A stretch of 64,000 bases of DNA. Source: Candidatus Marinacidobacterium sp. (GTDB lineage Bacteria > Acidobacteriota > Vicinamibacteria > Marinacidobacterales > Marinacidobacteraceae). The first letter of the stretch is position 1, and every line of letters begins with the position of its first letter. The notes beneath the pieces are model-generated. The model was not told the origin of the DNA and did not search any database. It worked only from the letters and a program-made list of their open reading frames with translations. The stretch spans positions 1,856,001 to 1,920,000 of the forward strand of contig OZ244852.1 in NCBI GenBank assembly GCA_965220965.1. The letters are read 5' to 3'. The position numbers and the translations under genes are program-made. This document shows, in pieces, positions 48,266 to 50,995 of the stretch.

Positions 48266-49912
48266 GTGCCTATCCGCCTTCGCAGCGTCCCGGGGCCTCT
48301 CCGGGTCGCCCGCCTCGTCGCCGTCCTGCTGGGCGCCGGCGCGCTCTCGACCGGGACGGCCGGAGCGCAGGAAGAACGGTCCCTCGATCTGACGACGGCG
48401 ACCATCGCCGAACTGAACGAGGCGATGGACGCCGGCGCCCTCACCTCGGAGCGGCTGGTGGAGCTGTGCCTGGCGCGGATCGAGCGCTACGACGATGAGG
48501 GGCCGCGGATCAACGCGGTCGTGAGCCGGAACCCGCGAGCTCTCGAACGGGCGCGGGAACTCGACGCGGAGCGCGCGGCGAGCGGACCCCGATCGCCGCT
48601 GCATGGGATTCCGGTGGTGATCAAGGACAACTTCGACACCGCCGACATGCCGACGACGGCCGGCTCCTTCCTGCTCGCCGATTCCCTCCCGCCCGACGAC
48701 GCGTTCGTCGTGCGACGCCTCCGCGAGGCCGGCGCCATCGTGCTGGCGAAGGTCAACCTGAGCGAGTTCGCCTCCGGCGGAGCGATGAGCTCGTTCGGCG
48801 GGATCACCCGCAACCCCCATGATCCCGCCCGCACCCCGGCGGGCTCTTCCGGAGGCACCGGCGCGGCGGTGGCCGCCGCCTACGGTTTCCTGGGCCTCGG
48901 TTCCGATACCGGCGGCTCGGTGCGCTGGCCCTCCACCGCGAACGGGATCGTGGGACTCAAGCCCACGATGGGTCTCGTCAGCCGCGACGGCATCGTGCCC
49001 CTGGCGCTCTCGTTCGACACCGCCGGCCCGATGGCGAGGAGCGTCCACGATGTCGCGGTGGGGCTCTCGGTCCTCGCCGGTCCGGATCCCGCCGACGCCG
49101 CCACCACCCGGAGCGCGGGCAGCGCCCACGGCGACTACCGGGAGTTCCTCGACTCCGCGGCGCTCGAGGGCGCCCGGCTCGGGCTCGCCCGCGATTTCCT
49201 CGGCTCGGACAACGAGGTGGACTGGGTGGTGGAGGCGGCGGTCGAGGCGATGCGCGCCGCCGGCGCGGAGGTCGTGGACGTCCGTTTCCCCGGCTGGCTG
49301 CTGGAGGTCGAGGACGACTTCTACACCGCCGTGCGCTGGCCCGAGTTTCGCCACCAGATCCAGGAGTACCTGGCCACGCTCGGCGACGGATATCCCCGCG
49401 ACCTGGACGAGCTGGTGGCCCGCTCCCGCGAGCTCGCCGCCCGCGGCGAAGGCGGCCGCCCGAATCCCGGCCGCTGGAGCCTCTTCCTTCGCGAGAACGC
49501 GAGCGGCGACGTCACCGACGCCACGCACGTGGCGGTCCGGGAGCATGCGCTGCCGCTGGTCCGGGCGGTCGTTCAGGGCCTGATGGACGACCAGGCGCTC
49601 GACGCGATCGTGTATCCCACCGCGTCGGTCCGCCCGGCGCGTCTCGACCGCGACCCCGGGGTCGCGCAGCCGGCGCCGTCTCCGGTCCGGTTCGCCAACC
49701 TGACCGGGTTTCCGGACCTGATCCTCCCGGCGGGCTTCACCAGCGGCGGGCTGCCGGTCGGGGTCTCGTTCCTCGGGCGGGCGTTCAGCGAACCCCGCCT
49801 CCTGGCGCTCGGCTACGCCCTCGAGGCGCGTCTCCAGGCGCTGCGCACTCCAGAGCACACGCCCCCGCTTCCGGGGGAGCGGATCCGCTGGCGCGACCCC
49901 TCCGGGGAGTGA
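48266..49912 (+). CDS. Secreted amidase-signature family protein
   Basis: Signal peptide ending AGA-Q; PLHGIPVVIKDNFDT, GSSGGTG, GSDTGGSVRWP (Ser-cisSer-Lys triad). Confidence 0.9.
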   Translation: MPIRLRSVPGPLRVARLVAVLLGAGALSTGTAGAQEERSLDLTTATIAELNEAMDAGALTSERLVELCLARIERYDDEGPRINAVVSRNPRALERARELDAERAASGPRSPLHGIPVVIKDNFDTADMPTTAGSFLLADSLPPDDAFVVRRLREAGAIVLAKVNLSEFASGGAMSSFGGITRNPHDPARTPAGSSGGTGAAVAAAYGFLGLGSDTGGSVRWPSTANGIVGLKPTMGLVSRDGIVPLALSFDTAGPMARSVHDVAVGLSVLAGPDPADAATTRSAGSAHGDYREFLDSAALEGARLGLARDFLGSDNEVDWVVEAAVEAMRAAGAEVVDVRFPGWLLEVEDDFYTAVRWPEFRHQIQEYLATLGDGYPRDLDELVARSRELAARGEGGRPNPGRWSLFLRENASGDVTDATHVAVREHALPLVRAVVQGLMDDQALDAIVYPTASVRPARLDRDPGVAQPAPSPVRFANLTGFPDLILPAGFTSGGLPVGVSFLGRAFSEPRLLALGYALEARLQALRTPEHTPPLPGERIRWRDPSGE

Positions 49913-49918
49913 TCGGCG

Positions 49919-50467
49919 CTACGCGGTCGGTTCCAGTTCGACGCCCAGACCGTTCGCCAGCCGGTTCACGAAACCGTAGTAGGACGCGACGGCGCAGGCG
50001 TCGTGGATGTCCCGGTCGTCCAGCCCGGCGTCCCGCAGCGGCGCGAGGTCAGCCTCGGTGACGGCCGCCGGCGCGCGGGTGAGCTTGACCGCGTAGTCCA
50101 CGAGAGCGCGGGTCCGCCGCGGCAGCGGCGCGGTCTCCGGATCGCGTACGAGCGCGTCCACCGTCCCGGGGTCCCGGATGAGGCGGAGGAGACCCCTCCG
50201 GTGATGCTCGATTCAGTAGTGGCACTCGTTGGTGACGGACACCGCCACCGCGAGGAACTCCCGCTCCGCGGGCGTGAGCCCGGACGGACCGCGCATCAGG
50301 TGCTCGTAGAGCCCGAGGTGGCGCTCCAGCGTCTCGGGATTCAGGCTCGAGACCGTCAGGATGTGGTCGACCAGCCCGTCCGGTCGACGGTGGCGCCGAT
50401 AGATGTCCCGCAGGCGGCCGGCGCCGGCCTCCGGATCCGTGGGGGCGACGGTGCGGATCCAGGCCAA
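49919..50467 (-). CDS. AhpD/CMD (peroxidase-related) protein, probable selenoprotein with CxxU; UGA at 50215-50213
   Basis: TTG 50467 MAWIRTV...EFLAVAVSVTNECHY-TGA-IEHHRRGL...YAVKLTRAP...YYGFVNRLANGLG in one frame; SECIS-like hairpin 12 nt after UGA. Confidence 0.8.
50184..50200 (-). promoter_or_regulatory. Bacterial SECIS-like hairpin
   Basis: Minus strand CGGAGG-GGUCU-CCUCCG; G-initiated apical loop 18 nt after UGA. Confidence 0.65.
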
Positions 50468-50521
50468 GGGGTTCTTCGGCGCGGGACGAAGTCCCGGCTT
50501 CGTTCTAGGATACCGACCCCC

Positions 50522-50995
50522 GTGATCGAGATCGCCTGCGACGGCTCCTGCCTCGGGAACCCGGGACCCGGCGGTTGGGCCGCGGTCGTGTGCTCCGATT
50601 CCGGGGAGACCGTCTTCACCGGCGGCGCCCCCGAGACCACGAACAACCGGATGGAGCTCGAGGCGGCGATCGCCGCCGTCCAGGCGGCGCCCTCGCAGGA
50701 GCGCGCCGTGGTCCTGTGCGACAGCCGCTACGTCGTCCAGGGAATCACCGAGTGGCTCCCGGGCTGGGTGCGGCGGAACTGGAGGACGGCGGGGAAGAAG
50801 CCGGTGAAGAACGTCGACCTCTGGCGCAACCTGGCCGAGGCCTCGCGCTCCCGCCCGCTCGTCTCCTTCCGCTGGGTTCCGGGGCACGCCGGGCACGAGG
50901 GCAACGAACGGGCCCACACCCTGGCGCTGCGCGAGGCCCGTCGCCAGCAGGGCCTCGCCGAAGCGCCGCGGCCCACCGGGCGCCTCCCGTTCTGA
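50522..50995 (+). CDS. rnhA: Ribonuclease HI
   Basis: DGSCLGNPGPGGW, TTNNRMEL, DSRYV, VKNVDLW, WVPGHAGHEGNE. Confidence 0.94.
   Translation: MIEIACDGSCLGNPGPGGWAAVVCSDSGETVFTGGAPETTNNRMELEAAIAAVQAAPSQERAVVLCDSRYVVQGITEWLPGWVRRNWRTAGKKPVKNVDLWRNLAEASRSRPLVSFRWVPGHAGHEGNERAHTLALREARRQQGLAEAPRPTGRLPF

Follow-up and report, generated by a model that had tools for sequence, protein, structure and literature searches.

A UGA codon at 50215..50213 on the minus strand of the window, the 64,000-nucleotide stretch of Candidatus Marinacidobacterium DNA analysed here, is very probably recoded as selenocysteine (Sec) within an AhpD-like gene. Its product (gene 50467..49919) is predicted to be a thiol/selenol oxidoreductase of 182 residues with the CMD fold, from the AhpD-like 'peroxidase-related enzyme' family (TIGR01926). 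The gene adds one member to a family of selenoproteins that has been on record since 2005. An earlier note on this DNA had proposed Sec recoding, and the proposal is supported by the sel genes of the genome, by the sharing of one alignment column between TGA and Cys, by the fit of a downstream hairpin to the model of the bacterial SECIS element (bSECIS) and by selection on the reading frame past the UGA. Nothing here calls for a new mechanism, since family, motif and recoding signal are all textbook cases. The features of the gene are as follows.

49919..50467, minus strand: predicted AhpD-like / peroxidase-related selenoprotein coding sequence, 182 codons plus a TAG stop at 49921..49919 (translation with TGA read as U, TIGR01926, PF02627 and Cys-homologues in the PDB)
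50465..50467, minus strand: TTG start codon; the product begins M-A-W-I, as in homologues
50222..50224, minus strand: TGC codon of Cys82, first residue of the CxxU redox motif; Cys in 64/81 full-length homologues, Thr in 13/81
50213..50215, minus strand: in-frame TGA, predicted Sec85; TGA in 47/47 TGA-bearing loci examined, Cys in 78/81 homologues
50201..50206, minus strand: codons of His88-His89, 3' of the redox motif and also the spacer 5' of the hairpin; His at residue 89 in 65/81 homologues and at residue 88 in 40/81
50184..50200, minus strand: SECIS-like hairpin; 5' arm CGGAGG (50200-50195), loop GGUCU (50194-50190), 3' arm CCUCCG (50189-50184)

Reading frame, neighbourhood and protein family

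The gene begins with TTG, ends with TAG and contains a single in-frame TGA. Two listed open reading frames of the minus strand, 50213..50917 and 49919..50161, belong to this one frame, with the TGA and a further 51 nt (17 sense codons) between them; the earlier note had joined them in this way, and recomputation shows its coordinates to be exact. Translation with TGA read as U yields 182 residues, with Cys82 and U85 lying within N-E-C-H-Y-U-I-E-H-H. The TGA thus occupies the second Cys position of C-H-Y-x, and the translation agrees with the read-through product, of the same length and with the TGA at the second Cys of CxxC, that had been described. The predicted TTG start is supported by the aligned start positions of a first set of 30 loci, the window's copy included, which read ATG in 24 cases, GTG in 4, TTG in 1 (the window) and CCT in 1.

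Downstream, the gene is convergent with an amidase gene (48266..49912, plus strand), and upstream it is divergent from an RNase H gene (50522..50995, plus strand). No functional link to the AhpD-like gene is apparent for any of the neighbours examined (amidase, RNase H, PhzF-like, ABC-F ATPase and sigma-70 factor), and a promoter scan returned no sites. The 54-nt divergent spacer between the selenoprotein start and the RNase H start contains a terminator-like hairpin at 50482-50496 (plus strand), with 6 pairs, a loop of 3 and a T-rich tail.

Against TIGR01926 'peroxidase-related enzyme' (cut-off 81.8 bits), the read-through product scores 142.6 bits over profile positions 13-176 of 178, in one stretch that crosses the TGA, and a Pfam search places it in the CMD family PF02627. 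Five Cys-homologues in the PDB (3c1l, 2pfx, 2oyo, 6k40 and 2prr) align over residues ~8-177 with E-values from 9e-29 to 6e-23. Where the window gene has UGA, these proteins have Cys; in the alignments of 3c1l (Mlr4105) and 2pfx, the C-x-x-C of the chain falls on C82 and U85. The substrates of the five are mostly uncharacterised, and their depositors named them 'putative' or 'uncharacterized'. At the redox motif, the window protein reads C82-H-Y-U85, and 81 full-length database homologues have C..C in 63 cases and T..C in 13. Two related models were ruled out for the product: AhpD proper (TIGR00777), which it matches at 16.1 bits against a cut-off of 191.95, and the NF041238 AhpD_rel_CFYUT (seleno)protein, at 36.8 bits against 175, where the C-terminal part of the 357-position model alone was matched.

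The AhpD of M. tuberculosis belongs to the TIGR00777 subfamily. Both it and the window protein fall within the CMD fold family and have a His after a redox centre of CxxC type, but the window protein lies outside that subfamily and its gene has no ahpC neighbour. In the M. tuberculosis enzyme the second Cys acts as the nucleophile, and a proton relay is formed by a Glu 12 residues before the first Cys and a His 4 residues after the second; we presume that these catalytic residues map to E70, C82, U85 and H89 in the window protein. Glu70 is kept in 66/81 homologues and His89 in 65/81.

Conservation of the UGA codon and of the frame beyond it

A homologue is found in 56/61 related genomes, a tally that (like those for selA and for the Prx-like and OsmC-like genes below) includes genome G036, which is absent from the aligned loci. 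Within family f1, every genome with a homologue has an in-frame TGA in it (24/24), and the remaining three f1 genomes (86-94% complete) yielded no homologue with the query used. The TGA lies at the C-H-Y-U column in 30/30 loci of the first extracted set and in 17/17 of a second, making 47/47 loci that span 41-80% identity. The second set takes in every further TGA-bearing match (17) down to an E-value of 1.2e-33, except G032:C21, with weaker rows outside the set. The first 3 TGA-less matches of the same search were also taken; these are paralogues (L060-L062, in G050, G044 and G041) that read C-D-Y-S, with Ser at the Sec column.

In database homologues of full length (at least 150 aa), the same column holds Cys in 78 of 81 sequences, with W, G and a gap once each, so that the Cys/UGA pairing for which an alignment had been suggested is indeed present. 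Because Cys is found in 78/81 homologues at the TGA column and in 64/81 at the Cys82 column, Sec would replace the best-conserved, and presumably catalytic, Cys. We judge the combination of an invariant TGA column, its pairing with Cys and a TIGR01926 match across the TGA to lie far beyond chance.

The codons on either side of the TGA were compared between the window and 24 f1 orthologues. Upstream of the TGA (codons 2-84), dN/dS, taken as median dN over median dS, comes to 0.149, and downstream of it (codons 86-179) to 0.209. In pairwise comparison, codon positions 1, 2 and 3 differ on average by 0.138, 0.128 and 0.412 upstream, and by 0.151, 0.112 and 0.385 downstream. By these values, purifying selection acts on the frame 3' of the TGA as it does 5' of it.

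The hairpin downstream of the UGA

A 6-bp hairpin, CGGAGG-GGUCU-CCUCCG, begins 12 nt 3' of the TGA, exactly in the sequence and position first described; its loop starts 18 nt after the UGA and its predicted folding energy is -10.0 kcal/mol. In the account given by a 2026 review (PMC13188914), the bSECIS model specifies an apical loop of 3-9 nt, an upper stem of 4-16 bp, a G in the first two loop positions, a UGA-to-loop distance of 16-37 nt and a minimum free energy of at most -7.5 kcal/mol. The window hairpin has a 5-nt loop that opens with G-G, a 6-bp stem, a spacing of 18 nt and an energy of -10.0 kcal/mol, in agreement with all four published constraints.

The enterobacterial fdhF SECIS element has 18 nt from UGA to loop, a loop beginning GGUC, and Gly-Leu as codons 7 and 8 after Sec, all of which are the same here. 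The earlier note had mentioned GGUCU at the fdhF apex, which is borne out by the portion of Salmonella fdhF sequence used for the comparison (PMC4489274). The two elements differ in that the stem of the window hairpin has only 6 bp (7 in most relatives) and its lower stem is not conserved; the bulged U of fdhF has no evident counterpart here.

By itself, the hairpin is weak evidence for Sec recoding. In the genome, 364 of 20000 sampled TGAs and 42 of 1432 terminal TGAs (1.8-2.9%) have a comparable structure behind them under strict criteria (at least 6 Watson-Crick pairs, a G-bearing loop of 3-7 nt and a loop start 16-22 nt after the TGA), and under looser criteria this rises to 20-25% of TGAs. 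Relative to dinucleotide shuffles, the folding energy has a z-score of +0.13 over 40 nt, +0.20 over 60 nt and -1.44 over 23 nt, where 18/200 shuffles are as stable. Folding stability was therefore dropped as an argument for a SECIS, being matched by shuffles and not unusual for DNA of 71% G+C. Over 60 nt, the minimum-energy structure is a different, competing fold, and the canonical hairpin is the minimum-energy fold of the 57 nt after the TGA in only ~12/30 relatives. An Rfam scan of 49800-50600 at E<=10 returned no SECIS family; its sole match, CRISPR-DR12 (16.4 bits against 37, E 2.4), is sub-threshold and is taken as chance.

We regard the comparative evidence for the hairpin as stronger than its single-sequence fold. 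The aligned loci fall into two registers, in which 90.1% (register 1; 31 sequences, 29 distinct) and 96.2% (register 2; 16 sequences, 15 distinct) of cells are paired, percentages that are inflated by the choice of registers after the alignment had been viewed and that come from related sequences. The value for register 1 is reached by 0/500 shuffles; slid controls give 32-69% in register 1 and 29-69% across both registers. The loop-closing pair of register 1, which joins two synonymous third positions, is GC in 15 sequences, AU in 6, GU in 4, CG in 1 and unpaired in 3. Eight cells of this register have changed on both sides, and one sequence carries A-U to C-G at another pair. In register 2, the closing pair is AU in 7 sequences, CG in 5 and unpaired in 3. 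The SECIS-like character claimed for the element is thus upheld both by its agreement with the published constraints and by pairing that is kept through compensatory changes.

Because the hairpin overlaps the codons of the peptide H-H-R-R-G-L-L-R, invariant in family f1, its conservation is partly protein-level, and free co-variation is therefore limited to third-position pairs. Third-position (synonymous) diversity is halved in codons 86-96, at 0.216 compared with 0.408 in codons 97-179.

Register 2 comprises distant Sec-containing homologues of families f3 and f8 (L042-L051, L053 and L055-L059). Their hairpin lies 2 nt nearer the UGA, with loops GGG, GGA or CGGGU, and the peptide there reads H-H-G-A-G-L-R or A-H-G-E-D-L-R. 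The RNA element is shifted relative to the reading frame in these homologues, yet retained.

Decoding of the UGA and the family in Acidobacteriota

The host genome (3.25 Mb, 2 contigs, 71% G+C) was searched for the components of Sec insertion. Profile searches find selA (TIGR00474) at 492.1 bits against a cut-off of 267.9, selB (TIGR00475) at 325.8 against 242.25 and selD (TIGR00476) at 251.6 against 125. A tRNA-Sec with anticodon tca is called by aragorn and scores 74 bits with Rfam RF01852 (gathering score 47). All four of selA, selB, selC and selD, which the earlier note had proposed seeking, are therefore found. Its fallback, that another UGA recoding mechanism would be implied if the sel genes were lacking, does not arise because they are present. 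TGA is an ordinary stop in this genome, where it ends 1432 of 1915 long coding-like open reading frames, and it is not reassigned genome-wide. Among the 61 related genomes, selA exceeds the cut-off in 58 and is absent from G036 (83% complete), G055 (72%) and G059 (99%); G059 has three homologues of the AhpD-like gene, all without TGA. As a separate observation on the tRNA genes, the second contig (363 kb) holds nine of them within ~1 kb (G000:C2:271965-272943; Lys, Arg, Ser, Ser, Arg, Ser, Ser, Ala and Tyr), duplicating specificities present on the main contig.

Three other explanations of the TGA were weighed against Sec recoding. Were the TGA a real stop, the locus would be a pseudogene or would give an 84-residue N-terminal fragment only, perhaps alongside a separate C-terminal piece. 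No stop codon is used more often in the genome than TGA, default gene calling yields exactly two pieces, and 19 of 100 hits in public protein collections are homologue pieces of ~100 aa. Three of these pieces end at C-x-Y and 11 begin at x-H-H after the Sec codon, which is also the pattern expected from the mis-calling by annotation pipelines that the earlier note had foreseen. A nonsense mutation, however, would not persist at one column in 47/47 loci of 41-80% identity, and the downstream frame, with its dN/dS of 0.209, is under purifying selection. Truncation would cost the product half of its fold along with its best-conserved Cys. A separate C-terminal piece would have 17 sense codons ahead of its first possible start. 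We consider termination at this codon extremely unlikely. A sequencing or assembly error, with TGC or TGT as the true codon, has nothing in its favour and is effectively refuted. Two studies contributed one public run each, and the Logan contigs of these runs (word depth 117 and 6.6), one of which may be the window's own source, are identical to the window over 49800-50600 and read TGA. The loci of forty-six other genomes have TGA at the same column.

The UGA could also be read through without Sec, either by near-cognate suppression (inserting Trp or Cys) or by insertion of Cys via the Sec pathway at low selenium. The inserted residue cannot be told by computation, and one NCBI protein, P0003, has W at the Sec column. 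Against this stand the complete Sec machinery of the genome, the use of TGA elsewhere as a stop, a hairpin that fits the bSECIS model at canonical spacing, and a recoded column that is the redox Cys, a classic Sec/Cys pair. In addition, G059, the only sampled relative without selA at such completeness, has TGA-less homologues only. Read-through of this kind is very unlikely, and recoding as Sec is the reading we retain. P0003 (183 aa) reads C-H-Y-W, and its W is most likely a Sec-TGA translated as Trp under a TGA=W code chosen for a metagenome-assembled genome (MAG). Among database proteins of 100-319 aa, no full-length protein is more than 53% identical to the product, and the closer hits (57-73% identity) are pieces of ~100 aa.

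Every component that bacterial Sec insertion uses, in cis or in trans, is present, and the codon and hairpin are conserved. In the standard bacterial pathway, SelD, SelA and SelB act in turn, and the same route would apply here. SelD would make selenophosphate, and SelA would convert Ser-tRNA-Sec to Sec-tRNA-Sec. SelB carrying Sec-tRNA-Sec would then bind the GGUCU hairpin, its putative binding site, and deliver the tRNA to the ribosome, where UGA would be decoded as Sec. In the enzyme, as the family suggests, Sec85 at the most conserved Cys column may attack a peroxide or an oxidised partner peroxiredoxin. A selenenylsulfide may form as Cys82 resolves the intermediate, and would then be reduced by a cellular thiol reductant. 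With M. tuberculosis AhpD as a guide, the proton relay may involve Glu70 and His89.

The earlier note had stated that AhpD-like selenoproteins were already reported, and the literature agrees. An 'AhpD-like protein' with CxxU (COG2128) appears as a new selenoprotein family of 27 sequences in the Sargasso Sea study (PMC1088965), and in the GOS study 'AhpD-like 1' is the fourth most abundant selenoprotein family, with 299 Sec and 902 Cys sequences (PMC2398784). An analysis of sequenced genomes includes the AhpD-like family and credits Acidobacteria with 3 selenoprotein families (PMC1794560). The table of the 2026 review has the entry 'AhpD-like protein, TIGR01926, CxxU' (PMC13188914), and the browsing example of BSepDB is the AhpD-like family (PMC13326102). 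The known family and the window gene share the TIGR01926 model, a CxxU motif with Sec second, the Cys/Sec pairing and a SECIS with a small G-bearing apical loop just 3' of the UGA. There is no categorical difference between them; the window copy comes from the Vicinamibacteria lineage of Acidobacteriota.

Of 53565 TGAs screened across the genome, 52 lie in frame between two stretches of coding-like GC3 and were taken as candidates. The screen needed at least 40 codons before the TGA and at least 30 after it, and would miss Sec near gene ends. A Pfam domain spans the TGA in 3/52 candidates, namely the AhpD-like gene and two genes outside the window:

G000:C1:1194080 (position of TGA), minus strand: Prx-like gene (AhpC-TSA, W-U-P-F-C); Pfam domain across the TGA, hairpin loop 21 nt after it
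C1:1192930 (position of TGA), minus strand: OsmC-like gene (G-G-U-M-L-G-T); Pfam domain across the TGA, hairpin loop 19 nt after it

The other 49 candidates are tandem genes in the same frame or lack a family. Two of the rejected loci, L107 and L113, have good hairpins and no family, and the translation of L107 resembles an antisense frame. The Prx-like and OsmC-like genes are adjacent, ~1.1 kb apart, at G000:C1:1192655-1194335 on the minus strand (loci L091, L108 and L139), and the pair is adjacent in relatives too. With the genome's own copies counted, best matches carry a TGA anywhere inside in 30/31 cases for the Prx-like gene and 30/30 for the OsmC-like gene. From their sequences, the two look like selenoproteins, and they speak for use of the Sec machinery at other loci of the genome.

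Across 121 Acidobacteriota genomes (at least 90% complete), TIGR01926 is matched in 37. Their 53 matches comprise 46 with one in-frame TGA (anywhere in the match) and 7 without, and it seems that in this phylum the family has the Sec form more often than not. Tentatively, and at somewhat less than even confidence, we suggest that the Sec form is the default and long-retained state of the AhpD-like family in Acidobacteriota. In Vicinamibacteria, on the same suggestion, it may have been fixed together with the Prx-like/OsmC-like pair, forming a selenium-dependent peroxide-defence set on which the class would rely. The value of the finding lies mainly in annotation, in that the gene, like its orthologues throughout the related genomes examined, is to be read as one 182-residue selenoprotein and not as fragments or a pseudogene. 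For the biology of the organism, it would mean that an acidobacterial lineage spends selenium on small enzymes of the thiol-peroxidase type.
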